A DNA stretch of 64,000 nt from Chthoniobacterales bacterium (GTDB lineage Bacteria > Verrucomicrobiota > Verrucomicrobiia > Chthoniobacterales > UBA10450): positions 19,362 to 83,361 of the forward strand of contig JBBPZS010000125.1 of the NCBI GenBank assembly GCA_038198605.1, in the 5' to 3' direction. Below are positions 28,157 through 58,656 of the stretch, piece by piece (within the stretch, counting starts at the first letter, position 1; every line of letters begins with the position of its first letter). Below the pieces are notes generated by a model that did no database searches, was not told where the DNA came from, and saw nothing but the letters and a program-made list of their open reading frames with translations. The position numbers were made by a program, and so were the translations under genes.

Positions 28157-28158
28157 CG

Positions 28159-36738: not shown

Positions 36739-36806
36739 TTTCTCCTCTAAGTATTCGTGATTTGCTCTCCAGGAACCAACACGACCGAGCGGTCGCCGCG
36801 GCGACA

Positions 36807-36943: not shown

Positions 36944-37591
36944 GTGACGACCATTCCTTTTCGTATTCTCCTCGCCGCGCTCGGAGGTTGCGCGCTGACA
37001 TCGTTCGCTCAATCGCCCGCCCCGAGCGACACCTCCGTCCAGGCGACCAATACCGAAACCGCCGCTTCGGCCGCCGCCCCCTCCCCTTCAGTCACTGAGT
37101 CGGTCGAGCCGCCTTCCCTGATTCCGCCGAATATTTTGCCCGCACCCGAGTCGCTTCCGAAAACTCCCGCGGCACCCGAGATCGAATTGTTAAAGTCGTA
37201 TTTTAAAACGACCTCACTCGGCAAGGCGGCCGACGAACACCGGCTCCATGTCGAGATGGTGGCGCTGGAAGCCGGCATTCGAAACGACGAAGATCTGCGC
37301 GCGATGAAGGCCCTGGCCATGCAGGCGCCGACCGATCTCGAGCGCCGCCATCGGCTGAAGGAGTACTACGGACGTTATTTCGGAAAGCTGCGCGCCCTCG
37401 CCACGACTTCAGATTTAAAAGAATATCTCGACGCGCAGGAAGCGACTCGCAAATTGGCCCTCCTCCAGCCGCGGGTGCGGCATGAGACCGATGAAGCCGA
37501 GGCCGCCGCCCTCGCGAAGGCGAGTCAAGGCGCGGTCACGGCGCTGCCCACGCCGGTCCAGGCGAGAGCCGGCCAGGTGGTGAGTCCCTGA
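36944..37591 (+). CDS. hypothetical secreted protein
   Basis: Non-ATG start; signal-peptide-like N-terminus (ILLAALGGCALTSFAQS). No recognisable domain. Confidence 0.45.
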   Translation: MTTIPFRILLAALGGCALTSFAQSPAPSDTSVQATNTETAASAAAPSPSVTESVEPPSLIPPNILPAPESLPKTPAAPEIELLKSYFKTTSLGKAADEHRLHVEMVALEAGIRNDEDLRAMKALAMQAPTDLERRHRLKEYYGRYFGKLRALATTSDLKEYLDAQEATRKLALLQPRVRHETDEAEAAALAKASQGAVTALPTPVQARAGQVVSP

Positions 37592-37659
37592 TTGCCGTCG
37601 GGCGGAGAATCGGCCGGTTGCCGCCTCGCCGGAGCGCAGCTAAAATGGGCGGCACCAAC

Positions 37660-37734
37660 GGCGCGTTCGTCTAGTGGTTAGGACACAGCCCTCTCAAGGC
37701 TGGTGCACGGGTTCGATCCCCGTACGCGCTGCCA
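37660..37734 (+). tRNA. tRNA-Glu (anticodon CTC), CCA encoded
   Basis: Hand-folded: D-arm gtctagtggttaggac, anticodon stem cagcc/ggctg with loop ctctcaa, T-arm acggg-ttcgatc-cccgt, and 3' gcca. Confidence 0.8.
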
Positions 37735-37811
37735 CTTCTCTTCATAGGTAAAGACGCGCGAATCCGCGATTTTTCTTGCAAAAGTCGGGCAGAAGTCGGA
37801 CAAGTGACCCC

Positions 37812-39098
37812 ATGAACACGAAACAGCCACAGTTCCCGATTCTCGTTAAAGTCGGCTCCTGTACGGTCAAAATCTATTGTGACCCCAAACCGCAGGGCAC
37901 GTATTACCGGGTCGTCTATTACCTCGGCGGGAAACGCCACCGAATTCATTGCCGCGATCTTGATACGGCGACCGAGGAAGCGTCAAAGAAGGCGAAGTTG
38001 CTGTCGCAAGGCGAGGTGGACGTGTTGCAGCTTACCGGACGCGACCGCCTCATTTACGGGACCGCGCTCGAAGCGGTGAAAAAATCTGGCGTCCGGCTGG
38101 ACGCTGCCGCGCTCGAGTACAGCGAGGCGCGGGACCTTCTCAATGGCGTGCCGTTGGTGGACGCGGCCCGATTCTACGCCCGTCATCATGCGCGTGGTCT
38201 CAAGCAAAAGGAGATCGCTGAGGCGGTGGCCGAAATGATCGCGGAGAAGAATTCGGCTGGCTTGAGCGCCCGCTACCTCGAAGACCTGCGCTATCGGCTT
38301 GGGACTTTCGCGGCTCGCTTCCACTGCAACCTTGCGTCGCTGACAGCCGATGATGTGCGGGAATTTGTCGCGGACCTGAGAAAGGGAACTTCGGCCATGA
38401 AGCAGAGCGTCCGCAGTCACAACAATTTCGTCGGTGCGCTGAAAACCTTTTTCGCTTTCGCGCAAGATCGAAGCTGGCTTGCAAAGGAAACCGACCTGCT
38501 GGCGAGCACGAAGAGGCGCAAAGAAAAAGCGACGCCGGTCGAAATCTTCACGCCAGCGGAAATGCGTTCGCTCTTGGCAGAGGCGACGCCGGAAATGGCC
38601 GTGTGCCTGGCATTGGGTGGATTTGCCGGGCTTCGATCGGAAGAGATTCTGCGCCTCGAATGGGCCGACTTGGAACGTTCGCCGGGCTTCGTTGTCGTCG
38701 GGGCTGACAAGGCCAAGACCGCGACGCGCCGCCTTGTGCCGATCTCCGACAATCTTTCGCGCTGGCTAGCCGTAGTGCCTCAAGGCAAGGGGCGCATCTG
38801 GAAAGACACGAAGGCAATGTTTTTCAAAATGCGTCTGGCCGTCGCGTCCGAAGCCCGGGTTAAGTGGAAACAGAATGCGCTGCGGCATTCGTGGATCAGC
38901 TACAGACTCGCCGAGATTCAAAACGTCAACCAAATCGCGTTGGAAGCAGGCAACTCGCCGCAGATGATCTTCCGGCACTACCGGGAGTTGGCGACACCCG
39001 CACAAGCGAAAAGCTGGTTCACGATCGCGCCTAACGAAGCGAAGAACGTCGTGCCGATGCGTCACGGCCTAGCGCAATCTTTCGCGATTCCGTGTTGA
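37812..39098 (+). CDS. tyrosine-type site-specific integrase
   Basis: C-terminal catalytic region (GLRSEEILRLEW ... ALRHSWISY ... FRHY) and N-terminal SAM-like domain. Adjacent to a tRNA. Confidence 0.9.
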   Translation: MNTKQPQFPILVKVGSCTVKIYCDPKPQGTYYRVVYYLGGKRHRIHCRDLDTATEEASKKAKLLSQGEVDVLQLTGRDRLIYGTALEAVKKSGVRLDAAALEYSEARDLLNGVPLVDAARFYARHHARGLKQKEIAEAVAEMIAEKNSAGLSARYLEDLRYRLGTFAARFHCNLASLTADDVREFVADLRKGTSAMKQSVRSHNNFVGALKTFFAFAQDRSWLAKETDLLASTKRRKEKATPVEIFTPAEMRSLLAEATPEMAVCLALGGFAGLRSEEILRLEWADLERSPGFVVVGADKAKTATRRLVPISDNLSRWLAVVPQGKGRIWKDTKAMFFKMRLAVASEARVKWKQNALRHSWISYRLAEIQNVNQIALEAGNSPQMIFRHYRELATPAQAKSWFTIAPNEAKNVVPMRHGLAQSFAIPC

Positions 39099-39225
39099 CA
39101 TAGCTCTCGGCACGCCGATAATTCCCTTAGAAAACACGAGAAAGGGATAGCAGTCCGCTCGTGTTTTTTCGTTTGTACGGAAGCACGGACGGCCCGCTGT
39201 TCCTGACTCATAACCTGAGGAACAG

Positions 39226-39435
39226 ATGATGGAAAAACTTGCTGCTTCGATGAATGCCGACGACGCCGATCGGCTGCTGGATAAACACGGCCTCGCCGAG
39301 CGGTTGAGCGTCTCAACCAGAACGGTCGATTGCTACATGCGTGCCGGCCGCCTGCCCTTTTTGAAGATCGGCAAAACCGTCCGCTTTAGATGGGCGGACG
39401 TGATGGAAAAACTGAGCGACTGCCGCGTGAACTGA
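39226..39435 (+). CDS. excisionase-family helix-turn-helix DNA-binding protein
   Basis: LAERLSVSTRTVDCYMRAGRLPFLKIGKTVRFRWADV is a typical MerR-type excisionase HTH. Confidence 0.8.
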   Translation: MMEKLAASMNADDADRLLDKHGLAERLSVSTRTVDCYMRAGRLPFLKIGKTVRFRWADVMEKLSDCRVN

Positions 39436-39499
39436 GGGAAAGAAAATCGCCGATGCGACTCGCGAAAATCTGCATCGGCGAAAATTCAACAATTACCGG

Positions 39500-40291
39500 A
39501 TGGATGCTAACTCCGATGCCGAACCAGAGCAACTGCCGACACAAAGCACCACCGGCTACAAGCTAATGAGCAACCTGCGCGATCGCTGCAAGCAGCCTTA
39601 CCCCGAAAAATGCTTTTTGTTCACGTTGGGAACATACTGCGACCGCGACGGCACCTGCTACGCGAGCAGCGAAACGTTGGCGGAAAAGATGGGTGTAAGC
39701 CCGAGCACGTCCAAGAGGATGCTGCGGAAACTCATTGCAGATGGAGAGGTAGAGATTCTCGAACCCGGAGTTGGGCGCAGCAAGAAGCGCGTTCTTAGAC
39801 TTACCCGCTATCTCGACTTCGTGCCGAGAAAGAGCGCGTCGGAGGACGAAAACAGGTCATGCTCTCGGAGCAAGGTGACCTGTGAAAACGGGTCACGCTC
39901 TTGGGGTAACGTGGCCCCTAACAGCCATTCTGAACAGCCAGAGGGTGCTCCGGCTTTCTTGAAAGCCTCCACACCCAAGGGTTCTGCTCGAACCCGTTTG
40001 AGGAAATCTTTTTCGCCAAGACTCCCGTATCCGAAGACCGAGGCGGCGCTTTACGCGAAGCTGGACGAGTTGGGCATCGAAAGTGACCCCACCTACGACG
40101 GCAATTTCTTTGAGCAGATGCAGCGGTCCGGTTGGACGATTCGCGGCAAGCCGATTCTCGACTGGCCAAAGGCTTACGCGGCGCGGCTCAAGAAAAGCCA
40201 GCCGCAGGACTTCCCGGCGAAACAGACCGCAGCGCAGCGGATGGCAGCGAAGCGTTCGGGCGAGTACGAGGAAGATTACTCTGATCTTTAA
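39500..40291 (+). CDS. winged-helix DNA-binding protein (possible replication/regulatory protein of the element)
   Basis: SETLAEKMGVSPSTSKRMLRKLIADGEVEI is a wHTH-like segment. The rest is unassigned. Confidence 0.5.
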   Translation: MDANSDAEPEQLPTQSTTGYKLMSNLRDRCKQPYPEKCFLFTLGTYCDRDGTCYASSETLAEKMGVSPSTSKRMLRKLIADGEVEILEPGVGRSKKRVLRLTRYLDFVPRKSASEDENRSCSRSKVTCENGSRSWGNVAPNSHSEQPEGAPAFLKASTPKGSARTRLRKSFSPRLPYPKTEAALYAKLDELGIESDPTYDGNFFEQMQRSGWTIRGKPILDWPKAYAARLKKSQPQDFPAKQTAAQRMAAKRSGEYEEDYSDL

Positions 40292-40385
40292 GCCCGAGAA
40301 AACTTTGACCAATTTCTACTTTAACGAGTCTTTCCCCAGAAGCAGAAACCGAAACCACAACCAACCAAACCGGAGAAACTAACCA

Positions 40386-41273
40386 ATGAAAACTGACAGA
40401 CCCATCGGCTCGCAGGACCTGACCTCGTACGAGCATCAATCGAAGCAGCTATTCCCCAAGGCGCGGGCCGGCGTCGAGTTTAACAGAAGTGACCAACTCG
40501 ACGACGTTTCACGCCGGGGCGGCGTCGGCCTCTTCCGTTCGCTCAGCGACCTGAGCGGCCGGGAAAATATCGGAATCGCGGACTTGGAAGCGCTGCTCAC
40601 GAGGATCGCCGAAACCGTGCCGGATAGCTGGCCGTATAACGATCGCTCAATGGGCCTCGTGCAGAGTTGGAAGGTCTCGGCCCAAAAGGCTCCTGTCACG
40701 CCAAACGCAGATAGATGGAAAAGTCCTGTCGATGCTAGTCCTCTTGGCTCCCCATGGGCTGAAGGCCAAATCGACCGTGTAGGGCAGGCAGTTCTCATCG
40801 CATCCGACCCAAAACTTGCCGAATTGTATATGGACCTTGCGAAACGATCGCCCTTCGAAATCGTGCGCGAGCGGGAAGAGCGCGAAGCGGTGCGGAAGAA
40901 ATTGCTCTCGATTTCTTACGACACAAAAAATCATGGGAATAATCCTTGGGCGCTTGGTCGCGAAGACCACGAGGCACAAGCAGCGTTCGTTGCTGAATAC
41001 GGCTCAGTCGAGGCGGGCGTGTGGCGCGAAGAGGGTCGGCAAAAAGTGCGCCTCCCGTGGTCGTCGAATGTCGATTCTCAGAACCGGACCATCAACGGCA
41101 ACCTCGCCGCTGGCTTCGATCGGGTGCCTTTTCTCGGCTGCGATGGCGAACTTTTCCGCCGGGCCGCTGGAATCGATTCCGCTCTGGCGAAGGCGCTGCA
41201 TGATGCCGCAGCTGATCGCGCCGCCCGTGCTTCCGAGGAAGCCCAACGCCTCGCACTCGCTGCCCGTCGCTGA
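40386..41273 (+). CDS. hypothetical protein of the element
   Basis: 295-aa ORF in the same direction with tight spacing. No domain recognised. Confidence 0.45.
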   Translation: MKTDRPIGSQDLTSYEHQSKQLFPKARAGVEFNRSDQLDDVSRRGGVGLFRSLSDLSGRENIGIADLEALLTRIAETVPDSWPYNDRSMGLVQSWKVSAQKAPVTPNADRWKSPVDASPLGSPWAEGQIDRVGQAVLIASDPKLAELYMDLAKRSPFEIVREREEREAVRKKLLSISYDTKNHGNNPWALGREDHEAQAAFVAEYGSVEAGVWREEGRQKVRLPWSSNVDSQNRTINGNLAAGFDRVPFLGCDGELFRRAAGIDSALAKALHDAAADRAARASEEAQRLALAARR

Positions 41274-41470
41274 TGGACCAAAGACGCCTAACGATCGCCC
41301 GGAACCGTCGGATCGCGCTCTGGCGTGCGCGATTCATCAAGAGCCTGCGCGCCTGCCCGAATATCCGGGCAGCGTGCAAGGCCGCGAACGTGTCGCCGCA
41401 AACTGTTTACCGCACAAAGCGAGACGACCCCGCTTTCGCGGCGCAGTGGCAGGATGGTAGAGAGGATTGA
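41273..41470 (+). CDS. small HTH protein resembling phage terminase small-subunit N-termini, probably 3'-truncated
   Basis: ACPNIRAACKAANVSPQTVYRTKRDDPAFAAQW. The ORF ends a few codons after the junction with the carbamoyltransferase. Confidence 0.4.
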   Translation: MDQRRLTIARNRRIALWRARFIKSLRACPNIRAACKAANVSPQTVYRTKRDDPAFAAQWQDGRED

Positions 41471-43175
41471 TCTCGCGGTGGACGGTCTGGAGCCGGCCGG
41501 AACCGTCGACGTGGCAGACGGCGGGGAGTTGGGCACGTTTCTCCTCCTTAATCTGGAAGACTTCCATCATGTAGGGGACATCGTCCTCCTGCTCGAACCA
41601 GTCACTGACCGCTTCTCGCAGGATCGAGGGAGCGAAAGGCCGGAAAGACTCGCGGCGCTTGATCTTGGCGTTGAGGATGTCCTTCATATCGGCTCGGCGC
41701 GGATCCCCGAGGATGGACCGGTTGCCCAGAGCGCGTGGGCCCCATTCCATCCGGCCTTGAAACCAGCCCACCACTTTGCCGTCGGCAATCGCGTGCGCGG
41801 TGCGGTGGCAAAGGGTGTGCATGTCGGAGATGTCGGCCAGCTCGCAATTGTCTTCCTTTAACTCATTCCGCCGCGGGTTAAGGACTCTCCAGCAGTCGTC
41901 CTTGGAGAATTGCGGACCGAGATAGGGCGAGAAACAGCCGGCACTGACGGACCCGGCCAGGGTAAGTGCCGGTTTTCCAAGACTGAAACGCGGAGCGCCG
42001 ATGGCCGTCGGTCGGGAGCTGGGAGATGGGAGATCGGAGTTGGAAGTTGGGAGATGCACGTCGCGACTGCGCACGCTGTCGGAAGGGCCCGTGATCGTGC
42101 CGGAAAGTTTGGCCGCCACCATCGCCGCGGCTCCGATAGCACCGCCCGCGTCGCCCGCCGCCGCAGGCAGATACATTTTCTTGAAAGGGGTCTGCAGATA
42201 CACCTTCCCGTTGGCCACTGAGTTCATGGCGCAGCCGCCAGAGAGCGCGAGGTTGGGCGACGGGTGGCGGTCATGGAGGCCGTGCAGGAGAGCGAAAAAC
42301 GCTTCCTCATACATGGCTTGGGCAGAACGGGCCATGTCCTTATGCTTTTGTTCGAGCGGCTCGCCATTTGCGCGGGGAGCACCGAGCAGGGAGCTAAGAG
42401 CAGAGGTGTAAAGCGTGCCGACTTCGGGCGAACAATCGTTCCAACTGTAGGAGACGTTGTCGGTGTGATGCCGGAAGTAGGCCAGATTGAGGCGAAAGGT
42501 GCCGTCGGATTGGATGCGGACGAGCTCGCGCATCTGCTCGAGGTATCTCGGCTCGCCGTAAGGCGCGAGGCCCATAACCTTGTATTCATCACCGTAATGC
42601 GGGAAGCCGATGAACTGGGTGATGGCGGAGTAGAAAATCCCCAGCGAGTGAGGGAAGTAAACGCGCTGGTCGATCTCGATCCGTCCTCCGCTCCCCCACC
42701 CCAGCGCGGTGCTGGCGAAATCGCCAAAGCCGTCGACCGAAAGGCAGGCGGCTTCGTCAAACCCGGAGATAAGGACGGCCGAAGCGAGGTGCGCAAGATG
42801 ATGCTCGACGTGATGGACCTGCGCTTTGAGCTGGATCCCATACGCCTTCTCGAGTGCTTCCGCCGCGGATGAGGCGCTCCGCATGTTCTGGATCTTCTGC
42901 CACATCAGACGCGGGTCGGGCAGATGAGTCACGACGAAGCCGAGCCGGCGCCAGTTGTTCGCGCCGGGTTTGCGATTGATCGCGATGTGATCGACGTCGC
43001 TCAACGACGCGCCAACTTCGGAGAGGCAGTAGTCGATCGCCTGTGTGGGCAGGCCCGCCCAGTGCTTGATCCGCCGGAAGCGCTCCTCTTCGGCCGCGGC
43101 GACGAGGCAGCCATCCTTCATGACACACGCTGCGGAGTCGGCGTGGTAGGCGTTAAGGCCGAGAATCAGGAACAT
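41337..43175 (-). pseudogene. NodU/CmcH-family carbamoyltransferase, 3'-truncated, with an internal repeat-derived insert
   Basis: N-terminus MFLILGLNAYHADSAA ... CHVDGSGRLQTVHREINPLYH, after which homology stops near 41454. The expected NTSFN C-terminal segment is missing, and the ORF reads on into island DNA. Confidence 0.7.
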
Positions 43176-43237
43176 TGGGGAAGGTGGGAAGTGGGAAAGT
43201 GGGAAGGTGAGAAGCCGGAGATCAGAGGTCTGAGATC

Positions 43238-43267
43238 GGAGCACGGAGCGGGGAGCAGGGAGCGCGG
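43238..43267. repeat. G-rich heptamer repeat (GGGGAGC/AGGGAGC), left bracket of the four-helix-bundle pseudogene
   Basis: ggagcacggagcggggagcagggagcgcgg. The complementary C-rich array is at 43959-43994. Confidence 0.7.
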
Positions 43268-43483
43268 AACTGGAGCGCTGGCTAGGGACGGAGGTGGCGC
43301 ATGAAGGCGAGGGTCATGCGGCTCTGCTCTTGGAGTTGGCTTATCAACCCCGCTGTGTCGCAGGCTTGAAAGGCCGCATTTCGCGTGAGCAGAATCAGCA
43401 TGTTGGCAACTTCAAAGACTGAGCGACGGGAGATGTTGAGGAAATTACGAAATTCCACGTCCGAGACGCTTCCAGATCCTTCT

Positions 43484-43738
43484 TTAGCCTGTGAAGTACC
43501 CCCTGCATCGCGTTTTGATATAGCGCTTGCCATAAGTCGTCTTGAGGTATTTCTCCCGGCGGAAAGCGTCCTGCTCGTTTGTGCAAGCTTCGTAATAAAT
43601 GAGGCAGAGTGGCCGTCTTTTAGATGTCGAAACAACTTTTCCTCTGTGGTGCAAATCCGGTCGCTTTCGTAGATCGCGCGTGCATCCGGTATAGAGCAAA
43701 CCGTCCGGTCCGGATCGAAGGACATAAACGTAGATCAC
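43484..43738 (-). CDS. GIY-YIG nuclease family protein (84 aa)
   Basis: IYVYVLRS..G.LYTGCTRDLRKR...H motif; GTG start. Confidence 0.85.
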   Translation of the reverse strand: MIYVYVLRSGPDGLLYTGCTRDLRKRPDLHHRGKVVSTSKRRPLCLIYYEACTNEQDAFRREKYLKTTYGKRYIKTRCRGYFTG

Positions 43739-43754
43739 GCTCCTACTTCACAGG
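43488..43754 (-). mobile_element. 267-bp mini-element with 11-12 bp terminal inverted repeats, encoding only a GIY-YIG nuclease
   Basis: cctgtgaagta at 43488-43498 and tacttcacagg at 43744-43754 are perfect inverted repeats. The length is a multiple of 3, and it is inserted within the conserved NI.EG region of the host gene. Confidence 0.65.
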
Positions 43755-43958
43755 CCAAGATGTTGTTCATGACCGAGATCGCAGCCCGCTGCAGCTGATC
43801 GCGAAATGAGTAGTCTTTCGCTCCAGGTGTAGCAGGACGGAAGCAGCGATAGCACGACTTCACCTGCGCTCGTGCGTCCTGCCAGATCACCAAATCTCGA
43901 AGTCTTGGAATCTAAATCGTTTCTCTTCCATTCTGCCGCCTTCCGTTGGTTTGTCTGA

Positions 43959-43994
43959 CTCCCCGCTCCCCGCTCCCTGCTCCCTGCTCCCTGC
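43959..43994. repeat. C-rich heptamer repeat, right bracket of the four-helix-bundle pseudogene
   Basis: ctccccgctccccgctccctgctccctgctccctgc has complementary polarity to 43238-43267. Confidence 0.7.
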
Positions 43995-44252
43995 TTTACG
44001 CTACCACCGCTGTGCGAAGGCATGCTGCCGCCCTTGATGCAGCCTCGAATTTCGTCGCGGCAGTATCGGTCGGTGAATGGAATGTCGTCGTTCTGCGGGC
44101 GAATCTGTCTCGAGGGGTTACATGCGAACGAGGGCATCGAGAATTAGCGAAGCGGAAATTCCCGTCAACGATATTCTCCCGGGCAGGTAAAAAGTCGCGC
44201 CCCCACCCTCCGGCGTTGACGATGGATCGCAGAATGCTGGATGTTGAAGTCG

Positions 44253-44885: not shown

Positions 44886-45830
44886 TCAGCTTTCCATTGA
44901 CGGCAGTTTGTCCCCCCATTGGAAGATCAGCCACGGCAGCCGGCGCGCGCTCCAGAAGCGCGGGATGAAGACGCGCGGCTGGGCGAGCGAACGGAAAAAC
45001 CAGCCGAGATAATATTTGTCGGCCCAATCCGGGATTCGCACCTGATCGCCGGTAAGGAATCCGATGGCGGCGCCGATGCAATGCACCGCAGGACGATAAT
45101 CGAGCTGCTCGAGGAGATACTGGCCGAGCTTGTCCTGGATTCCGCCGCCGACCGCGATGACGATGTGCTTCGGGTGAGTCTGCCTAACGAGTTCAAGCAA
45201 GGCCTCGTCCTTGACCGGCCGGCCGTATTTCGGGGCAACGTACAAACCGGAGGCCAGAGGCCGGAGGTCGGTGGTCAGCGGTGCACCCGAAGCAGTATTC
45301 CCATCATGCCTGTCCTCTATCCTCTGTTCTCTGTTCTCTGTTCTCTGCTTTCCGATCTCTGTCCTCTGTCCTCTGTCCTCTGGTCGCCCCTGTTTCAGTC
45401 CCAAATCCTCATCGGTAGGGCGAGACTCCGTCGAGCCAAGCCCTCGATCCACGGACGCGACGGCGCGCGTCCCTCCAGCGAGGAATCCTTCCAGCTTCTC
45501 GCGGGAGGTTTCGGTCGCGACAACCCAGATTACCGCGCCGGGTTGCCGGACGGATTCGTGCTCGAGCAGGCGTTTGACGTGTTCGAGCCCGGAAATGCGC
45601 GGGACGCGTTCACCGGTAAAGAATTTCCAGAGCAGGACCATGAAACCGCTGTCGGCGATCGCGATCTCAGCGCTGATCAGCGCGCGCCGGTAATCTTCGT
45701 CCCGGCAAAGATTGATCATGGAAGGCGCGGCCGGCGCGACGAGCAATCCGCCGCGGCGGGTGATCTCGTCGACCGCCTCGCGTGATGTCCCGCCGAAGAA
45801 TTCAATGCCGAGGATACGATGCGTTCGCAT
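44886..45830 (-). CDS. WecB/TagA/CpsF-family glycosyltransferase with a ~77-aa in-frame repeat-encoded insert
   Basis: Family blocks LGIEFFGG...ADSGFMVLL...IAVGGGIQDKLG...IGAAIGFLTGDQVRIPDW. The insert is at 45246-45476. Confidence 0.75.
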   Translation of the reverse strand: MRTHRILGIEFFGGTSREAVDEITRRGGLLVAPAAPSMINLCRDEDYRRALISAEIAIADSGFMVLLWKFFTGERVPRISGLEHVKRLLEHESVRQPGAVIWVVATETSREKLEGFLAGGTRAVASVDRGLGSTESRPTDEDLGLKQGRPEDRGQRTEIGKQRTENREQRIEDRHDGNTASGAPLTTDLRPLASGLYVAPKYGRPVKDEALLELVRQTHPKHIVIAVGGGIQDKLGQYLLEQLDYRPAVHCIGAAIGFLTGDQVRIPDWADKYYLGWFFRSLAQPRVFIPRFWSARRLPWLIFQWGDKLPSMES

Positions 45831-46688
45831 ACGTGGTTAATGGTTATCGGTTATTTGTTGTCCGGGAAGAACGGAAAGCAAGAAGCGGGCGGAGCGGAGC
45901 GCCCCCCAAGGAGCGGCGGTTTACAACCGCAGAAGGCGCTTACAAAGCGCCTTTCCTTGCCATCCTCCCCTCCGTCAATCCAACCAGACGACATCCGCCT
46001 ATGGCGGACCGTCCCTCTAATTGAGGCGGCAGGCGGAGCGCCCGCCCTACAATTTTTCCTTCGCCGCTTCGCGCGAGGCGCGCAGCTGCAATCTTGTTCC
46101 ATCCGTGTCATCGGTGTAATCCGTGGTTCAGCCGTTCAGCTTTTCCCTCGCCGACGCTCTGTAGCCGCGGCTCTGCGTAACCGTGCGGGCAGTGCCTCAA
46201 CACAGTGAGGCGGCTACAGAAAGCGGACACAGAGTCCCTCCAGGCAAGGCTACAAATTTTCCATTCTTCCATCCGTGTATTCCGTGGTTCATCAGCGTTT
46301 GATTGACTCGACTTGGCCCCAAGTCTCGGGGCTTCACCCGCGCTTCGCTTGTCCATGTCGCGCGGTTCCCACCGGCTCCGTCGTTTTCCGGGGAGCACGG
46401 GCTGCCAGCCCGTCGGTTCGGCGAGTCTCGCCGCACAGCTTCCTCTTTTTGCCGGGCGAGGAGCTGGGCGGCCCGCTTTTGAAAGTTCGTGCTGGGTGAC
46501 ACCCAGCACCCACGGGGTGGCACCCCGTGCTCCCCAATCCGTGGTCCATGTCGCTCCCGTCAGCGTTTCCCTGATCCCTATCCATCCGTGTCATCCGTGG
46601 TTAAATTTTCAGCGTGTCAGCTTTCGCCCAGTAACCAATAACCAATAACGATTAACAAATAACCTTACTCCTGCTATTCTCCGCCGCC
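45831..46688. repeat. REP/low-complexity repeat mosaic with no credible ORF
   Basis: Contains copies of several families seen elsewhere in the window: GGCAGGCGGAGCGCCCGCCCTACAA, CCATCCGTGT.ATCCGTGGTT, GCCTCAACACAGTGAGGCGGCTAC, GACGACATCCGCC..GGCGGACCGTCCC, and GGTTATCGGTTAT units at both ends. Confidence 0.75.
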
Positions 46689-48503
46689 TTGAATGCCGCT
46701 GTCGCTGAACCGCCGCCTCCCGTCGTACGGCGTCGCTCCATTACTCCAGCGGTGGTTTTGCTCTTCGCCACGCTCGGCCTGCTCTGGTTTATCCTCTGCC
46801 GCGATCTCAGCCTGGAGTGGTCCTCGAACGAGCAATACAGCTACGGCTGGTTCGTCCCGTTCTTCGCCCTCTTTCTCTTTTGGCTGCGCTTCGAAGATGC
46901 GGGGCATCTTCGAAGCGGTTATCGGTTATCGGTTAATGGTTCCTTGGACTCCGCCGGGACGGCTCCCGCCATAACCAACAACCAGCAACTAATAACCATC
47001 GGCGCGATTATCGGCCTCGCGATGATCGCGCCGATCCGCCTCTTCGAATACGCCAACCCGGACTGGCGGCCGCTGAGCTGGGGGCACGTCCTCGCGGTCG
47101 TGGGTTTAACGTTATTGGTTATTGGTTATTGGGGCGGCCGAAAGGCAGTGCGGCATTTCGCCTTCCCCGTCTGCTTCATTCTCGTTGCCGTCCCATGGCT
47201 GACCCCGATCGAAGCGCCGCTCGTGCAATGGCTGATGCGCCTGGTTGCGTCCGTCGCCACGGAGACGCTGACCCTTTTCGGCATTCCCGCACAACTCGAA
47301 GGCAGCCTCATCCGGGTGAACAACGGCGTCGTCGGCGTGAGCGAAGCGTGCAGTGGTGTGCGCTCGCTCCAGACTTCGCTCATGATCGGGCTGCTCTTTG
47401 GCGAACTGAAACGCCTAACGATCGCGCGAAGGGTCGCACTCGTTGCCGCGGCGCTCACGATCGCGCTCTTCGCAAATTTCGGACGAGCTCTTTTCCTGGT
47501 CTGGATCGCCGCGACCCAAAATCTGGCCGCGGTCGAGCGCTGGCACGACATCGCGGGCTACGCGATTGTCGGCGCCGTCTTCGTCGGCACGGTGGCCCTC
47601 GCGAGCTGGCTCGCGGGGCAAGTCAGAAGTCAGAATGAAGAAGGAAGAAGCGACCAAGGGAAAGGCAAATGTCAGAAGGAAGAATTAAGAAGTTCAGCAG
47701 AGCTGACCACTGACCTCCGATCTCTAAGTCCTACCATCGCTACCAGCGGGCGACACGCCCGCCTCTACATTTTCCGGCTTCCTCCTTCTTCCTTCTTACT
47801 TCTCACTTTCAGCTGGCTTCTTTTCGTCGAAGCCGGCGTCACCACCTGGTATCGGTGGCATGAACGTAACTTCGTTCCGACAACCGCCTGGAGCGTGCGC
47901 TGGCCGGAAGATGCGCCGGGTTTTCGCGAGCTTCCGATCGCCGACAATGTTCGCACCACCCTGCGCTACGATTCCGGACGGGAAGGTGCCTGGCAGACCA
48001 TCCTCGCGACCCCGCCCGACCAGCAGCCGGCGCCGGCCACCGTAACGATGTTTTTCTTCCGCTGGGAACCAGGGTCCACAAGCATCCTGCGGGCACGAGC
48101 GCACCGGCCTGATATCTGCCTGCCGAACACCGGGTGGCGCGTGGCAAATGATGAAGGCGTGCGGTGGTATGAGGCGGCACCCGGTCTCGCCCTGCCCTTT
48201 CGCCATTTCAGCTTCGTCCGCGAGGCAACGCCCGGACGACAGGTGTTCGCGCACGCGTTTTTCTGCCAGCGGGAAGATCGCGTGCCACCGCGCGCGGCCG
48301 ATCGGTTCGATGTCACGGCCGGGGAGACCAGCGACTGGATGCGTAACGATCGCGTGCGGGTGGTGCGGGAAGGTCTGCGGAACCAGGGGCAACAGGTCAT
48401 GCAGTTAGTTCTCCTCTCCAAGCAGGAGCTCAGCGCAGAAGAAGCCCAAACCGAATTCGCCGCCCTCGTGCCGGGGCTGGTCATGTCAGAAGGCAAAAGG
48501 TAA
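46689..48503 (+). CDS. exosortase fused to an EpsI-family domain, with two repeat-encoded in-frame inserts
   Basis: Multi-TM N-terminal half with EACSGVRS (exosortase Cys motif), and a soluble C-terminal half resembling EpsI. Inserts at 46917-46999 and 47622-47805. The last 5 codons lie in repeat 48485-48522. Confidence 0.75.
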   Translation: MNAAVAEPPPPVVRRRSITPAVVLLFATLGLLWFILCRDLSLEWSSNEQYSYGWFVPFFALFLFWLRFEDAGHLRSGYRLSVNGSLDSAGTAPAITNNQQLITIGAIIGLAMIAPIRLFEYANPDWRPLSWGHVLAVVGLTLLVIGYWGGRKAVRHFAFPVCFILVAVPWLTPIEAPLVQWLMRLVASVATETLTLFGIPAQLEGSLIRVNNGVVGVSEACSGVRSLQTSLMIGLLFGELKRLTIARRVALVAAALTIALFANFGRALFLVWIAATQNLAAVERWHDIAGYAIVGAVFVGTVALASWLAGQVRSQNEEGRSDQGKGKCQKEELRSSAELTTDLRSLSPTIATSGRHARLYIFRLPPSSFLLLTFSWLLFVEAGVTTWYRWHERNFVPTTAWSVRWPEDAPGFRELPIADNVRTTLRYDSGREGAWQTILATPPDQQPAPATVTMFFFRWEPGSTSILRARAHRPDICLPNTGWRVANDEGVRWYEAAPGLALPFRHFSFVREATPGRQVFAHAFFCQREDRVPPRAADRFDVTAGETSDWMRNDRVRVVREGLRNQGQQVMQLVLLSKQELSAEEAQTEFAALVPGLVMSEGKR

Positions 48504-48522
48504 AAGGTAAAAGGAAGAAGTG
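48485..48522. repeat. left inverted repeat (GTCAGAAG / AAAAGG / GAAGAAG units) of the four-helix-bundle cassette
   Basis: gtcagaaggcaaaaggtaaaaggtaaaaggaagaagtg. Its termini match the reverse complement of 48913-48943. Confidence 0.75.
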
Positions 48523-48873
48523 GCGGACGAACTAGATCTGCGGGAACGCACAACCGAGTTTGCCCTCCGAATTATTCGAATGTTCGTGACGCTGCCCAAG
48601 GCGACGGAAGCGCAGGTTCTCGGAAAACAGGTGCTGCGTTCCGGAACATCCATCGGCGCAAACTATCGTGAGGCTCACCGGGGTCGCAGCAAAAATGAAT
48701 TCATCGCCAAGTGCGGAGATTGTCTGCGGGAAGCTGAAGAAACTGCATATTGGCTGGAGCTGCTTGTCACTTCGGAGATCGCTCCAGCGGCTCGGCTCGC
48801 GCCGTTGCGACGCGAAACTGAGGAATTAATTGCCATCTTCGTCACCATCGTGAAACGCTCCAAAGGCCTTTAG
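48520..48873 (+). CDS. four-helix-bundle protein, 23S rRNA intervening-sequence protein family
   Basis: 117 aa with FALRIIRM...LRSGTSIGANYREA...E..YWLELL, typical of the family. GTG start inside the left repeat. Confidence 0.85.
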   Translation: MADELDLRERTTEFALRIIRMFVTLPKATEAQVLGKQVLRSGTSIGANYREAHRGRSKNEFIAKCGDCLREAEETAYWLELLVTSEIAPAARLAPLRRETEELIAIFVTIVKRSKGL

Positions 48874-48912
48874 TCTTAGGCTTCACTTCTTCCTTTCCTG
48901 ATTCTGGTTTTT

Positions 48913-48943
48913 CACTTCTTCCTTCTTCCTTTTGACTTCTGAC
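48913..48943. repeat. right inverted repeat of the four-helix-bundle cassette
   Basis: The reverse complement is gtcagaagtcaaaaggaagaaggaagaagtg. An extra partial copy is at 48881-48900. Confidence 0.75.
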
Positions 48944-50378
48944 TTGCATTTGATCGATCCCGAGCTGGTCCAGCGTCAGCACCGGCGACGGTTGCTGCTT
49001 GGAATCGGCGGCGTTCTCGTCGTTCTCATCGTTCTCGTCCTCGTCTTCGGCCGGCCGGCGCGCCACGCGATCAAGGCCTGGCAAGCGCGACGTCATGCAG
49101 AAAAGGCATTCACCCTCATCGCCGCGGAAGAATGGAACGACGCGACCAAAGAGGCACGGAGCGCCTACCAACTCAGCACGACCGAGCCGGAGGCGGTCCG
49201 GGCCGTGGCCCGCCTGCTCTCGCGCACCCGGCAGCCACAGGCGCTCGGCTTCTGGAAAGCGCTGTGCGATGAACAGCCGCTCACGCGGGAGGACCTGCGC
49301 GACGAGGCTGCCATCGCACTCGCGGTCGGGGAAAATGGAATCGCCGGGCGTGCGGTGGAGGAGTTGTTAGGCAAAACCGAAGGCGGACCCGGCCCAGCCG
49401 ATCGGCTCCTCGCCGCCCAGCTCGCCGCGCAAAGTCGCGAGTCGGAAAAAGTGTCCGATTACCTCGCCAAGGTCGTCTCGGATCCCAAGGCGACGGAACG
49501 CCAGGTTTTCCAGGCTTCGTTGTTTCAACTCGCCGCCACCAGCGGCACCGCTCCCGGCGCCCGGGAAACGCAGGCCGCGGCCTGGAATCGTGTGACCAAG
49601 ATCGCGCGCGGAAAAACCGACGTCGCGCTCGACGCCCTGACGATTCTCGCGCAGCACGCCCTCTCCTCGCCTAACGAGATCGTTTCCGATCCCGCGATCA
49701 TGCCGGATACGGAGTTGATCCAGGCTCTCGAAGCGCACCCGCTCAGCCGCGCCGCGCAGAAACTGCTCGCGATAGACCTGCGCATTCATCTCGACCCGGA
49801 TCAAAAAGAAAATCTTATCGCGCAAGCGACCCAGACCTGGCGCAAAGCGGATAACGAATCGCTAGCCATTTTTGCGCGCTGGTTAAACGGCAAAGGCGAA
49901 TTTCAGCGCGAACTCGACACCATCCCGCTCGATAAGGCTCTGCAAACCCGCGACCTCTTTTTGCAGCGACTCGACGCGCTCGGCGCGCTCGGGAATTGGG
50001 CCGAAATCAAACGCCTGCTCCAAAATGAAACCTTCCCGCTCGATCCGGTCATCGAGCACATGTATCTGGCGCGCTGCAATCAGCAGCTCGGCGAAGTCGT
50101 CGCGGCTGAAAACAACTGGCAGCGGGCCCTGGAAGCTGCTGCCGGCGATCCGCAAAAACTTCTACCGCTGGCCGATTACCGAAAAAAACGGCGCGACGAC
50201 GACCGCCGGCGCTGCCTACGACACCGTCGCCCACGACAATCCGGCGGTGCGTCCAGCGCAGCAAGGCCGGCTCCGGTTGGCCCAGCAGAAACGCGACACC
50301 CGCCAGATGCATCGCATCCTGGCCGAAATGCTGAAGCAATGGCCTAACGACACCGCGATCCAGAACGATGTTCACCGC
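48932..50378 (+). pseudogene. membrane-anchored TPR-like repeat protein, frameshifted near 50178-50188 and 3'-truncated
   Basis: TM helix LLLGIGGVLVVLIVLVLVF followed by helical repeats. The reading frame continues in ORF 50025-50513 after ...LLPLADY. Homology style changes after ...WPNDTAIQND. Confidence 0.5.
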
Positions 50379-52357: not shown

Positions 52358-52518
52358 AGCGTGGCAAGCGCTTCAACACAGTGAGGCGGCTACGTTGAGC
52401 CTCGCCAGGCCGGCAATCCGCCTGGGACGCGCGGGGCAGGCGCCTCAACACAGTGAGGTCCCCTCGGGGTCTGAGGTCCCCTCGGGGTCAGTCCTCCCTT
52501 TCGACATGAGGTCCCCTC

Positions 52519-52599
52519 GGGGTCAGTCCTCCCTTTCGACATAAACCTGCCATAGTAGGCGCGACCAGATCAGCGCATTTTCAGGAATCGCATTTTTCG
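52519..52599. repeat. ~80-nt repeat family, copy C (tandem partial 5' copies at 52455-52518)
   Basis: ggggtcagtcctccctttcgacataaacctgccatagtaggcgcgaccagatcagcgcattttcaggaatcgcatttttcg. Confidence 0.85.
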
Positions 52600-54515: not shown

Positions 54516-54839
54516 ATGTCCCCAAAACTCGACTCCTACGCCACTTCTTCCAATCGGCTGATTGATGCCATCCTCATTCTGTTTGTCATCGTCGTGATCG
54601 CGTTCACGCTCATCACCGCGCCAAAGTCGCATTCGAGCGATCAGAAGACCGCCGGATCGAGCGCTTCTTCGCTCACGGAAAATAAAAAGGCGGACGACAC
54701 GGAGGTCGTCCCTCCAGGCAGGCGGAGCGCCCGCCCTACAATTTCGGCGTTCGAGATTCCCATCCGTGTAATCCGCGGTTCTCCGCCTTCTATTCGCCTA
54801 TGGCGGGCCGCCCCTCCCCCATCCGTGCCATCCGTGTAA
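54516..54839 (+). CDS. hypothetical small membrane protein; 3' part reads through REP sequence
   Basis: One TM helix (LIDAILILFVIVVIAFTLI). From about codon 60 onward the translation is of repeat DNA. Confidence 0.25.
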   Translation: MSPKLDSYATSSNRLIDAILILFVIVVIAFTLITAPKSHSSDQKTAGSSASSLTENKKADDTEVVPPGRRSARPTISAFEIPIRVIRGSPPSIRLWRAAPPPSVPSV

Positions 54840-55051
54840 TCCGTGGTTCTCTCAAATAACCCTTAACGAATAACTTCCCATCCACCTTGCTTATTCCCCG
54901 AAGCAGACTAACGTGGCGACTCTTGGATAAGTTCTGTTCTGTTCGTAGTGCGGTAGATCGTCAGGTGAGATTCCTCATTGGTGATTCTGAAACCCGATTC
55001 CCGGGAACGGCTCTGTAGCTCGCAGCTCCTTGCTCCAAAATCACAAAAAAA

Positions 55052-55333
55052 ATGAAACTATACGTAGGAAATCTCTCTTTTGAGACCACTGAAAACGATC
55101 TTAGCGATCTCTTCTCCGAACATGGCAAAGTGACTGAAGTCGCGATCCTGAGCGACCGCGAAACCGGCCGCTCGCGCGGGTTCGGTTTTGTCACCTTCAC
55201 CGATGCAGCCGGCGCCAACGCCGCCATCGCCGCCCTCAACGGCAAGGAAATCGGCGGCCGTGCCCTGACCGTGAACGAAGCGCGTGCGCGTGAAGAACGC
55301 CCCCGTGAATTCTCCGGCGGCAACCGCCGGTAA
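55052..55333 (+). CDS. RNA-binding protein with RRM domain
   Basis: RNP-2 (LYVGNL) and RNP-1 (RGFGFVTF) motifs. Confidence 0.9.
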
Positions 55334-55408
55334 TCGACCACTTTTGATTTTGCAGGCCGGCGCCCGTGTACGCGGGCGCCGGTTTTGCACTTCAAGCAAC
55401 CAAATTAA

Positions 55409-55633
55409 ATGGCTGTAGATCCCAAAAAAGCGATCGAAATTGAAGGCAAGGTCATGACCGTCCTGGCCGGCACCATGTTCCGGGTACAACTGTCGAATGA
55501 GCACATCGTGCTCGCCCATATCTCGGGCAAAATGCGGAAACGGTTCATCCGCCTGACGACTGGCGACCGGGTGCGTCTCCAGATGTCGCCCTACGATGTG
55601 GACAAGGCGCGCATCGTTTATCGGCTGGGGTAG
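55409..55633 (+). CDS. infA: translation initiation factor IF-1
   Basis: 74 aa; [43 protein letters not shown] is a canonical S1-like IF-1 sequence. Confidence 0.95.
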
Positions 55634-55670
55634 GCGCGCCTTGCGCGCCGGTAATTTGTTGTTTATTCTT
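55633..55670 (+). terminator. hairpin plus T-rich tract after infA (also a module of a dispersed composite repeat)
   Basis: ggcgcgc-ctt-gcgcgcc 7-bp stem followed by ggtaatttgttgtttattctt. The same module recurs near 55765 and 56353. Confidence 0.4.
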
Positions 55671-56568
55671 GGTTGTTGGGCGGGTAGCTCGCTCGCGAAA
55701 ACTTTCGGAGCTCCGGCTGCGGCGCTGCAACCCTAGGCAAGCGGAGCGCTTGCCCTACAATAGGCGCGCCTTGCGCGCCGGTTATTTGTTCTTGGTTGTT
55801 GGGGGATGCACTGGGTGCTCCTTCCCAATTTTTAGGACGGACGCTCCGCCTGCCGCGTTGCGTCCACTCGGCAAGCGGAGCGCTTGCCCTACAATTTTCC
55901 TGCCTTGCTCCTCTGCTGCTGGACGGCACGGCGGCCGTCCCTCCAGGGATGGCAGCGACGCGCCCGCCCTACAACTGCTTCCGCCCCGGATTCCTCCGAA
56001 TCCGTGTCATCCGTGTCATCCGCGGTGACCAGCCGTTTTCTGACTGCGGATTTGAAAGCCCGGCCGTTGCTTCGCATCCGGTACGGCGCGGATAATCTAG
56101 GGAGCGCGTGCGACTCGCACGCTGACGAAGGCGACCCGCCTTCGTGAACTTTTCCCTCTCTTGGATTAGAGGGCTTCTCCGCGCTCCCTGCTGATCGCCA
56201 ACTCCTCGCGCAAAAAAAGTCGAAGCCTGTTCGGCGAGACTCGCCGAACCAACGGGCTGGCAGCCCGTGCTCCCCGGAATGAAACGCCGACGACATCCGC
56301 CTACGGCGGACCGTCCCTCCACGGAGGCAAGCGGAGCGCTTGCCCTACAATAGGCGCGCACTGCGCGCCGGTTATTTGTTAATTGTTGTTGGGGGATGCA
56401 CTGCCTCGGCGACCGTCCCTCCAGGAGTGGCAGCGACGCGCCCGCCCTACAACTGCTTCCGCCCTCTATTCCTCCCCATCCGTGGCATTCGTGCAATCCG
56501 TGGTCAAAAAAATTGCCGCAGAGAGGACCCTTCTTGCGGGCGACACGCCCGCCGCTACACTCTTCGCC
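55634..56568. repeat. REP/composite-repeat mosaic between infA and icd
   Basis: GGCAAGCGGAGCGCTTGCCCTACAA at about 55739, 55870 and 56329; GGCAGCGACGCGCCCGCCCTACAA at about 55950 and 56430; plus CATCCGTG... and GGCGAGTCGCC-type hairpins. Confidence 0.8.
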
Positions 56569-57882
<1,314 letters not shown>

Positions 57883-57920
57883 AGGGGGGCGACGAATTGC
57901 CCTAACGGATCGCGGCAGAA

Positions 57921-58029
57921 ATTGTAGGGCGGGCGCTCCGCCTGCCGCGCGTAAGCGCACGATTGTAGGGCGGGCGCTCCGCCTGCCTCTTAATGAATGC
58001 GGCGGCAAGCGGAGCGCTTGCCCTACAAT
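57921..58029. repeat. REP array upstream of RAYT-2 (two forward copies, one inverted)
   Basis: attgtagggcgggcgctccgcctgcc at 57921 and 57962, and ggcaagcggagcgcttgccctacaat at 58004. Confidence 0.9.
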
Positions 58030-58054
58030 TCCGTGGAAGATATCATCCGCCGCG

Positions 58055-58486
58055 ATGGCGCATCCCCCGCGAATACCTGTGTGGCTGAAATGCGATCAGG
58101 AGGTCGTCTATTTTCTTACATTCTGCGTCGCCCGGCGAGAAATGGTGCTCGCAAATGAGGCGACCTTCGCAGCTTTCCAAAGGGCGATCACTGGCCTGAC
58201 GAAGTGGAATGTCATCGCCGCAGTGCTGATGCCGGATCATGTTCATCTCCTTATCGCGCCGAAGGATCGCGAGGAAGAGGTTGGGCATGCAACTGGCGCA
58301 TTGAAGCGTTGGATTCGCCAGGAGGTGAATGCCAAATGGCGCTGGCAATCGGGCAGCTTTGATCGCCTGCTGCGGTCAGATGAATCGGCCTACGAGAAAT
58401 GGCAATACATCCGGGAAAACCCGGTGCGCGCGGGCCTCGCGGAGAAATGGCAGGATTGGCCGTATCGAATCGGATTCGAATTGTAG
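58055..58486 (+). CDS. REP-associated tyrosine transposase (RAYT, IS200-like), second copy
   Basis: HUH motif PDHVHLLI and Tyr region WQYIRENPVRAGL. The TAG stop lies inside the first downstream REP. Confidence 0.75.
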   Translation: MAHPPRIPVWLKCDQEVVYFLTFCVARREMVLANEATFAAFQRAITGLTKWNVIAAVLMPDHVHLLIAPKDREEEVGHATGALKRWIRQEVNAKWRWQSGSFDRLLRSDESAYEKWQYIRENPVRAGLAEKWQDWPYRIGFEL

Positions 58487-58620
58487 GGCGGGCGCTCCGC
58501 CTGCCGCGCGCAGCGCATGATTGTAGGGCGGGCGCCCCGCCTGCCTTTATCCGACAGGGCGGCAAGTGGAGCGCTTGCCCTACAACAGCAGAATGGCAGG
58601 CGGGGCGCCCGCCCTACAAT
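58480..58620. repeat. REP array downstream of RAYT-2 (two forward copies, two inverted)
   Basis: Copies at about 58480, 58520 (forward), 58561 and 58596 (inverted) of the GTAGGGCGGGCGCTCCGCCTGCC family and its AA/T variant. Confidence 0.9.
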
Positions 58621-58656
58621 TTGCCCTGCCGACGGTCGCGGCTTAGATGTCCGCCC

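Follow-up and report, generated by a model that had tools for sequence, protein, structure and literature searches.

A four-helix-bundle gene cassette with heptamer-repeat arms, and an in-frame gene-less hairpin of the same repeat family, in an exosortase operon of a Chthoniobacterales bacterium

Intervening sequences (IVSs) with an S23p open reading frame (ORF) occur in the 23S rRNA of Leptospira and other bacteria. Another relevant class of repeat, the short tandemly repeated repetitive (STRR) heptamers, was originally defined from heterocystous cyanobacteria; STRR units are said, in work attributed to Mazel and colleagues in 1990, to be tandem heptamers of varied sequence in the intergenic parts of operons, and reportedly (a finding attributed to Vioque in 1997) they also lie inside a structured RNA, in helix P12 of RNase P. 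To our knowledge, no function or origin has been assigned in ~30 years to the S23p/PF05635 proteins and the 23S rRNA IVSs, and the cyanobacterial tandem heptamers are likewise unexplained. The IVS in helix 45 of the Coxiella burnetii 23S rRNA is 428 nt long, carries an S23p (PF05635) ORF, is closed by a 28-bp terminal stem that is cut by RNase III, and is regarded as a selfish element; its 5' arm consists of AGAAGA followed by two to three tandem GACAGAT heptamers, the number of which varies between strains (PMC4990558). PF05635 proteins are homologous to Avd, the accessory protein of diversity-generating retroelements (DGRs), and share its four-helix-bundle (4HB) fold (PMC10053308). Here we describe a 4HB gene with heptamer-repeat arms, and a gene-less hairpin built from the same repeats, in and beside an exosortase gene. 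Both lie in a 64,000-nt stretch of the genome of a Chthoniobacterales bacterium (assembly GCA_038198605.1, contig JBBPZS010000125.1, positions 19,362 to 83,361), which we refer to as the window.

We think it probable that positions 48485-48947 of the window are an intervening-sequence-type selfish cassette of ~460 bp, with the 4HB gene in the loop of a stem made of heptamer arrays. The gene (48520-48873; the operon described here is on the plus strand) encodes a protein of 117 aa from a GTG start, and matches PF05635 ('23S rRNA-intervening sequence protein', E=4e-19), TIGR02436 ('four helix bundle protein', E=3.9e-26) and the solved structure PDB 2RLD (E=1.9e-22). This Avd/S23p-type helical bundle is the only ORF of the cassette, which encodes no transposase. 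It sits between two protein-coding genes, not within a 23S rRNA helix (25 or 45); a search of Rfam gave no match in the cassette region, and in the window as a whole it returned two tRNAs and no rRNA. Compared with the orthologous junction copies, the gene has a dN/dS of 0.10-0.20 with synonymous sites near saturation. It is therefore under purifying selection and, because dN/dS is ~0.1 at near-saturated synonymous sites, we judge the protein to be functional. More than 120 database clusters are 72-83% identical to it. A phmmer search of the 117-aa protein against the ORFs of the window returned only itself; the two other 4HB cassettes of the window, described below, were located through their repeats and not through protein searches.

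An earlier, sequence-only reading of this DNA had proposed that the 4HB gene is bracketed by inverted repeats, and this, like the other sequence features that it listed, was confirmed at the coordinates given: 48490-48522 and 48913-48945 are complementary over 33 nt (82%). The left arm (48485-48522) is composed of the heptamers GTCAGAA, GGCAAAA, GGTAAAA (twice) and GGAAGAA, followed by GTG. As that reading had also recognized, the exosortase gene ends within this arm, which supplies its final five codons (S-E-G-K-R) and its TAA stop (48501-48503). The GTG with which the 4HB gene starts is likewise part of the arm, as is a GGAAG that resembles a Shine-Dalgarno motif. The outer right arm (48913-48947) includes the TTG (48932) with which the downstream gene most plausibly begins. 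An inner right-arm copy, CACTTCTTCCTTT (48884-48896), is a perfect 13-nt complement of 48510-48522 and pairs with the left arm in a 1.37-kb fold. All four arms of the region, that is, those of the cassette and those of the gene-less hairpin, are tandem 7-nt repeats of GTCAGAA, GGAAGAA and GGTAAAA or of their complements. Tandem Repeats Finder reported period-7 rows at 47620-47650, 47778-47803, 48490-48514 and 48915-48931, plus ~20 more across the window, and a strict detector of our own found 10 period-7 arrays in the window and 0 in Markov controls. Two words, GTCAGAAGTCAGAAG (9 matches, 1.33 expected) and GAAGAAGGAAGAAG (6 matches, 0.48 expected), have all of their matches within 47.6-48.9 kb, and neither count was reached by any of 100 shuffles, which is more than chance would give. 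The cassette stem is present in the RNA fold.

The best pairing of the region is a long-range one, between the left arm of the gene-less hairpin (47618-47653) and the right arm of the cassette (48912-48947; 36 nt, 92%). The minimum-free-energy (MFE) fold of 47600-48965 (1.37 kb) selects this pair and leaves the remaining arms as inner stems. The pair encloses the EpsI half of the exosortase gene together with the 4HB gene, and may be only a by-product of the shared words. We considered, and rejected, a single large element bounded by these two arms and including the EpsI half, since the fusion is also present in outgroups, where it lacks repeats.

The host gene (46689-48503) encodes an exosortase fused to an EpsI-like C-terminal half. 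The exosortase part (aa 29-308) was identified by its match to PF09721 (E=3.3e-45), with further matches to TIGR02602 and TIGR03109, and the fusion is common to all 44 aligned orthologs and to six outgroup loci. The 3' end of this ORF lies inside the left arm of the cassette, and the gene-less hairpin lies in frame in its linker. The downstream gene (48932-50347), labelled a tetratricopeptide repeat (TPR) gene by the sequence-only reading, had no family match in Pfam and NCBIfam searches. It is syntenic 3' of the exosortase in relatives, and its orthologs come next after the exosortase gene in ~45 loci. The TTG at 48932 is its most plausible start: it aligns with the starts of the orthologs (MPNDRLLIDPELR in these, (M)TSDLHLIDPELV in the window), in agreement with the claim that the right repeat holds the start of the next gene. 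The cassette is a seamless insertion between the exosortase-EpsI gene and its neighbor, borrowing the stop codon of the one and the start codon of the other. An assembly error in 47540-50004 is unlikely, because a separately assembled Logan contig from public short reads (SRR24807094, L081), which may derive from the same sample as the window, is 100% identical over this interval. Further arrays were noted in and before the exosortase gene. A CCAATAA array 5' of its start (46627-46656) and a GTTATTG array (47104-47133) that encodes a conserved LLVIGYW are complementary to 90%; the pair spans the start codon and 140 codons, and arrays at 46916-46935 and 46973-46998 lie within a hypervariable N-terminal loop.

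To compare the locus with its relatives, we used 72 loci (L001-L072) from a genome scan with the exosortase protein, nearly all of them from metagenome-assembled genomes of Chthoniobacterales or other Verrucomicrobiota. A total of 44 4HB genes, namely 42 from these loci and the two intact copies of the window, were scored for flanking inverted repeats, and 33 of them have clear inverted heptamer arms. These arms are 16-66 nt long and 77-100% complementary, and the elements span 389-621 nt. The purine-rich arm lies 5' of the 4HB gene in all 33 (p=2e-10), and the arms of a cassette pair better with each other than with arms that belong to different cassettes (permutation p<1e-4). In a rough gene call, both neighbors share the strand of the cassette in 19 of 31 cases. 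The KEEV and GTG start context is kept in L039, L011, L004, and L003, and the GGAAG and GTG context is conserved in five orthologs.

The junction between the exosortase gene and the next gene is found in several states. It is empty, with 22-72 nt and no repeats, in L012, L021, L029, L032, L052, and L064, which answers a check suggested in the sequence-only reading and marks the cassette as a discrete insertion. A 4HB gene close to that of the window occupies it in L039, L011, L004, L003, and L055; a second 4HB clade with AAGTAGG arms in L022, L023, L036, and L046; other 4HB clades in L001 and L020; and a distant subfamily with GAGGTCA arms in L033, L045, and L051, while L018 has one on the opposite strand; the filled states comprise at least four clades. 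Gene-less hairpins with arms of 13-38 nt and loops of 36-170 nt occur at the junction in L005, L006, L008, L010, L019, L030, and L035, and in L034 the 4HB gene between intact GAGGTCA arms has lost ~50 internal codons. When all 4HB proteins were compared with the hairpin loops by tblastn, a gene remnant was found in L034 only; the other matches were translated repeat arms. On a neighbor-joining tree of the exosortases these states are interspersed (for example, L022 stands beside L033, and L006 beside L011), and the junction has therefore been filled, refilled, and emptied several times. In L055, the junction cassette (7700-8330) combines a duplicated 4HB fragment with nested arrays drawn from two word families.

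In the 4HB protein tree, each clade has its own arm word. As labels of consensus heptamers on the tree were noisy, we used shared arm 6-mers instead. Such 6-mers are shared by 42 of 42 pairs of cassettes at different sites whose proteins are at least 60% identical, and by only 7-18% of different-site pairs below 45% identity; sites were classed as different by a heuristic, and the pairs lack independence. The clade-A 4HB genes of L085 and L086, for instance, are 74-75% identical to that of the window and lie in unrelated contexts (a DUF885 gene and a SET-domain gene), with arms of AAGTAAG, AATTAAG, and AAGGAAG, words of the family to which the window cassette and the linker hairpin also belong. 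Clade and arm word thus go together even where the sites are unrelated, and gene and arms therefore behave as one mobile unit, which has moved among related soil bacteria; these comparisons show that they are inherited and relocated together.

The gene-less hairpin (47618-47810) lies ~700 bp upstream of the cassette, in frame within the exosortase ORF. The inverted pair that the sequence-only reading had placed in the linker between the exosortase and EpsI halves was recovered as 47620-47651 and 47777-47808, which are 88% complementary over 32 nt with 125 nt between them, and the stem forms in the RNA fold (z=-3.2). The purine-rich left arm (47618-47653) reads GTCAGAA twice, then TGAAGAA and GGAAGAA, and encodes ...QVRSQNEEGRS...; the pyrimidine-rich right arm (47777-47810) encodes ...LPPSSFLLLT..., the start of the hydrophobic segment of the EpsI half. 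Two further arrays lie in the loop. One is purine-rich and degenerate (47655-47693), a 74% direct copy of 47613-47650 that contains the AATTAAG variant GAAGAATTAAGAAG; the clade-A cassettes of L011 and L086 have this word variant in their arms as well. The other (47700-47735) is a pyrimidine-type run of CTGACCA, CTGACCT, CCGATCT, and CTAAGTC with the peptide TTDLRSLS. It has no partner in the window and is the complement of the GAGGTCA arm family of L033, L035, and L051, and its peptide type recurs, as PTSDLRP, in many orthologous linkers.

The linkers of the 44 orthologs are hypervariable in length and sequence, and many look like translated heptamers (KAKVEN, or RSEVGSQKSEV, followed by FLLPTSYFLL); in all of them the left arm encodes a charged loop and the right arm a hydrophobic segment. 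In 17 of the 44, the best inverted repeat of the linker exceeds the 99th percentile of a background of equal-length windows from the same genes. The inverted heptamer pairs of these 17 linkers are at the same place, and their words differ between lineages. Six outgroup exosortase-EpsI fusions (~30% identity) have a plain linker, ~39 residues shorter, with a short N-terminal loop and no repeats. The expectation that exosortase orthologs would lack the 47.6-47.8 kb insert held, then, for the outgroups, but not for the 17 orthologs with a hairpin at that position. Linker words are closer to the junction arms of their own locus than to those of other loci (p=0.0004), with the own junction ranking first of 22 in the window, L011, L022, and L030. 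Taken from these alignments, the linker hairpin appears to be an insertion or expansion specific to the order Chthoniobacterales, one that is old or recurrent at this site and exchanges sequence with the neighboring cassette, and apparently not a private, recent hop of a miniature inverted-repeat transposable element (MITE). It is a gene-less member of the same arm family, most likely copied from, or gene-converted with, the neighboring cassette lineage. No ortholog has a gene inside the linker, and the linker copy therefore entered or arose gene-less. Read-through of the exosortase ORF predicts that it is translated in frame; it would be tolerated and translated because the linker is permissive. 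The exosortase linker of L002 (6885-7120) contains an insert of another kind, a GC-rich palindrome whose arms are 52 nt long and which is similar to window positions 7307-7336.

Two more 4HB cassettes lie in the window. The first (159-610; gene 209-565, PF05635 E=4e-36) has AGAGTTG arrays at 159-184 and 581-606 (85%) and takes up precisely the space from the end of one ORF (158) to the start of an Fe-S subunit gene (611; Fer2_3 and Fer4). The third (43240-43995, minus strand) has GGAGCAG-type arms at 43240-43273 and 43962-43995, and its 4HB ORF is interrupted by an 84-aa GIY-YIG nuclease gene (43484-43738); the rejoined halves match PF05635 (E=5.5e-19, positions 4-104 of the 106 in the model), and the arrangement suggests that a homing-type event placed the nuclease gene in a selfish cassette. 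The three cassettes of the window use three different heptamers, each with mutually complementary arms, and adjoin functionally unrelated genes (for an Fe-S subunit, a carbamoyltransferase, and the exosortase). Several other period-7 arrays of the window form inverted pairs; two pairs bracket 4HB genes. No target-site duplication was visible at the three window cassettes, whose arm ends are fuzzy, and no fixed terminal sequence was seen. One metagenome scan for near-identical strains with an empty site returned two distant loci only.

The homologue of the cassette is the 23S rRNA IVS and not a MITE. Like the Coxiella IVS, it has a PF05635 ORF in the loop of a terminal stem (428 nt there, ~460 nt here), with a stem of 28 bp there and a predicted ~30 bp here, and a purine-rich, Shine-Dalgarno-like 5' arm of heptamers (AGAAGA and GACAGAT there, GGTAAAA/GGAAGAA here). 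The host differs, being rRNA in Coxiella and here a protein-coding operon or, for the gene-less copy, a translated ORF. So does the state of the ORF, which is decaying and probably not expressed in Coxiella, whereas here it is under purifying selection. Excision by RNase III was demonstrated in Coxiella; in our case it would follow by analogy. A scan for promoters and terminators inside the cassette gave nothing above chance, and the cassette would be co-transcribed with the operon. The arms, which pair in MFE folds, could then form an RNA stem of ~30 bp that RNase III might cut as it cuts the homologous 23S rRNA IVSs, and this cut would part the flanking cistrons and free the 4HB message. The purine-rich arm may supply the ribosome-binding site, as the conserved GGAAG and GTG context suggests.

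Several observations weigh against the reading of the locus as a selfish cassette with a gene-less derivative. A 491-nt fold of the window cassette is no better than shuffles (z=-1.1), and its arms are complementary to only 82%. On a Pseudanabaena plasmid (L075), a 4HB gene between cas6 and cas4 has direct arrays, AAAAGCT x14 upstream and AAAAGCC x10 downstream, and therefore a stem is not obligatory in this family. L034 is the only case with a 4HB remnant in a hairpin loop, and only the sharing of sites and of words points to a descent of gene-less hairpins from full cassettes. The linker copy, for its part, was never a full cassette where it now lies and cannot have contained a gene there. 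The heuristic site classes behind the link between gene and arms belong with these points.

Beyond this locus we propose, tentatively and with rather less confidence than for the cassette itself, that heptamer-armed 4HB cassettes are one widespread, undescribed class of mobile element that includes the S23p-type 23S rRNA IVS. Their clade-specific arrays would be recognized by, or co-evolve with, the Avd-like protein; gene-less remnants may make up much of the STRR-type DNA of cyanobacteria and Verrucomicrobia, among them hairpins read in frame by which host proteins gain peptide segments; and movement could proceed via a stem-loop RNA or a single-stranded DNA hairpin. The window arrays resemble STRR in being tandem 7-nt units of several copies whose sequence varies between loci, and differ in their host, a member of the Chthoniobacterales (Verrucomicrobiota) and not a cyanobacterium. 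4HB genes are found on cyanobacterial plasmids, wedged between nrdB and nrdA, cmr2 and cmr3, cas6 and cas4, and parA and parB. Of six that we examined, three have inverted heptamer arrays (on Nostoc, Geminocystis, and Picosynechococcus plasmids), one has the long direct arrays of Pseudanabaena, one has a one-sided array, and one has non-complementary arrays on both sides. PF05635 genes within cas operons have been noted before, without the repeats (PMC3936711). Within the part of the literature that was accessible, we found no published link between STRR and 4HB genes, and between heptamer arrays and PF05635 genes only a passing note in the Coxiella paper (PMC4990558). The heptamer-arm rule, the link between clade and word, and the in-frame copies were likewise not met in the accessible literature, but may be noted elsewhere.

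Other systems are less similar. Integron cassettes are also promoterless single-gene units, with imperfect inverted repeats that form hairpins and an orientation in line with host transcription; here, by contrast, the repeats lie on both sides of the ORF and not as one 3' attC, there is no integrase or attI platform, and the copies are dispersed and not arrayed. For the DGR comparison, the other 4HB protein of the window has a weak match to NF033474, and the Avd model scores well under its cut-off. A reverse transcriptase was found neither among the neighbors in 44.2-51.4 kb (NusG-like, WecG-like, exosortase, TPR-like, PIN, and antitoxin genes) nor in ten further window proteins that were scanned (25.5-31, 37.8-41.3, and 51.8-62.4 kb), and, unlike at DGRs, no template/variable repeat pair lies nearby. 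The gene-less hairpin recalls MITEs and the Rickettsia palindromic elements as a short palindromic insert that is tolerated and translated in a permissive loop and has a larger element as its relative. It departs from them in its arms, which are variable tandem heptamers with no conserved consensus, and in having no visible target-site duplication, no transposase partner, and an insertion site that is common to many orthologs.

The sequence-only reading had gone further and likened the two elements to an autonomous/non-autonomous, MITE-like pair. As an explanation, a DNA transposon whose 4HB protein acts as the mobility enzyme on the inverted arms and moves the gene-less hairpin in trans is unlikely in our judgment. 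Gene and arms do relocate together, the 4HB protein is under selection, gene-less hairpins with the same words occur near full cassettes (in the window, L010, L011, and L022), and the linker hairpin must have come gene-less, no ortholog having a gene there. Yet the small helical bundles of PF05635, which have DGR Avd and PDB 2RLD as homologs, contain no nuclease or recombinase motif that we know of, and for an Avd/S23p-type bundle without known transposase chemistry the label 'autonomous' has no support. There is also no fixed terminal sequence, arm copy number varies, the three window cassettes show no visible target-site duplication, and the strict purine-5' polarity (33/33) suggests a strand-specific role, in RNA or single-stranded DNA, rather than symmetric terminal repeats. 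The proposed pair is partly supported, in that the cassette is discrete, its derivative is real, and the two share a word family that includes GAAGAATTAAGAAG.

Somewhat more doubtful again is the possibility that the hairpins came first. Inverted arrays would, as with cyanobacterial STRR, have arisen and spread alone, by slippage and intrastrand repair or through an enzyme of the HUH type such as a REP (repetitive extragenic palindromic)-associated tyrosine transposase (RAYT), and 4HB genes would have homed in later, which would make the gene-less hairpins empty targets and not derivatives. The Pseudanabaena gene, which splits what looks like a single direct array, fits this view, as do the nested arrays of two word families in L055 and the abundance of gene-less hairpins, some of them within ORFs where no gene is possible. 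The GIY-YIG gene inserted in another 4HB gene indicates that homing-type events occur here, and the window contains a RAYT/IS200-like ORF (a sub-threshold match) with palindromes and inverted 9-mer arrays. However, insertion into unrelated hairpins does not predict that arm words co-vary with protein clade at different sites. Sister lineages, moreover, have a hairpin or a cassette with different words at the same junction (L006 and L011), and L034 represents decay of a full cassette towards a hairpin.

It is improbable, we believe, that nothing is mobile at all and that the stems are signals for processing or stability of the operon mRNA, formed in place, with the 4HB protein as a host RNA-binding factor. 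The conserved protein, the position of the cassettes at cistron boundaries, mostly on the same strand as their neighbors, and the junction copy kept through long divergence in the window, L039, L011, L004, and L003 would all suit such a role, and in Beggiatoaceae a role as post-transcriptional signals has been proposed for heptamer repeats that lie immediately 5' of start codons (PMC4679880). A host structure formed in place does not account for a junction that is present or absent and is replaced by different clades, for the same clade and arms at unrelated sites, for truncated copies, or for cassettes beside functionally unrelated genes (Fe-S subunit, carbamoyltransferase, exosortase). Finally, it is hardly credible that the inverted repeat is a compositional accident in which Lys/Glu/Arg/Ser-rich loop codons and Phe/Leu-rich membrane-helix codons mimic one: the linker arms do encode a charged loop and then a hydrophobic segment in all orthologs, and a purine tract is by its nature in part the complement of a pyrimidine tract, but 0/100 shuffles reach the word counts, the arms have a strict 7-nt periodicity, the linkers score far above other coding windows of the same genes, the same architecture occurs at non-coding junctions, and outgroup linkers encode a loop and helix without repeats.

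In this locus and its relatives, the build known from 23S rRNA, a 4HB gene in a heptamer-array stem, operates in ordinary operons. A single junction displays gain, replacement, decay, and gene-less states, with arm words that follow the protein clade, and three questions become testable: whether the stem is an RNase III site in mRNA, whether the Avd-like protein binds its own repeats, and how the unit moves. Repeats can, it seems, become parts of proteins, here the linker and the start of a membrane segment of an exosortase-EpsI fusion, which is of relevance to gene annotation and to the reading of 'low-complexity' linkers in these phyla. The picture is of a lineage in which heptamer hairpins have colonized operon junctions and protein linkers, and it is more general than the sequence-only reading could see.

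Other repeats of the window are recorded here. A gene-less heptamer hairpin (4773-4920; 34-nt arms, 85%, 80-nt loop) lies within the 164-nt gap between E1 alpha-like and E1 beta-like dehydrogenase genes. In-frame heptamer arrays are found in other genes: 45248-45382 is a ~70-aa insert in a WecG/TagA-like glycosyltransferase, with the peptide ...QRTENREQRIEDR...TTDLRPLAS..., 42014-42056 is the inter-domain region of the carbamoyltransferase, and 43178-43214 is the apparent N-terminal extension of the same gene. The RAYT/IS200-like candidate, a 176-aa ORF (~2965-3495) with H-x-H and YLHNNP motifs, has a weak Pfam match to the IS200/Y1 transposases (E=0.05, below threshold) and, given this sub-threshold support, was not used as a basis for our conclusions. 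It is flanked by 48-nt inverted repeats that bear palindromes (2897-2944 and 3515-3562) and by outer inverted arrays of the 9-mer CGCAGAGGA (2843-2875 and 3632-3664), and 2843-3664 may be a RAYT in a similar, array-bracketed layout. At least two further palindromic repeat families, GTGGGAGGGGCCTTTGCGCCCCGAT and AATTGTAGGGCGGGCGCTCCGCCTGCC, have many intergenic copies (28026-28257, 30971-31050, and 54717-60739). Downstream of the tRNA genes at 36665-36738 and 37660-37731 come a tyrosine-integrase-like gene (37776-39098) and a helix-turn-helix gene, and 36665-41300 is probably an integrated island. Tandem 9-nt units of the CCATCCGTG type occur at five places (46100, 52764, 54442, 54819, and 56000), and a perfect 35-nt tandem duplication is found at 52472-52542 (within 52454-52542).

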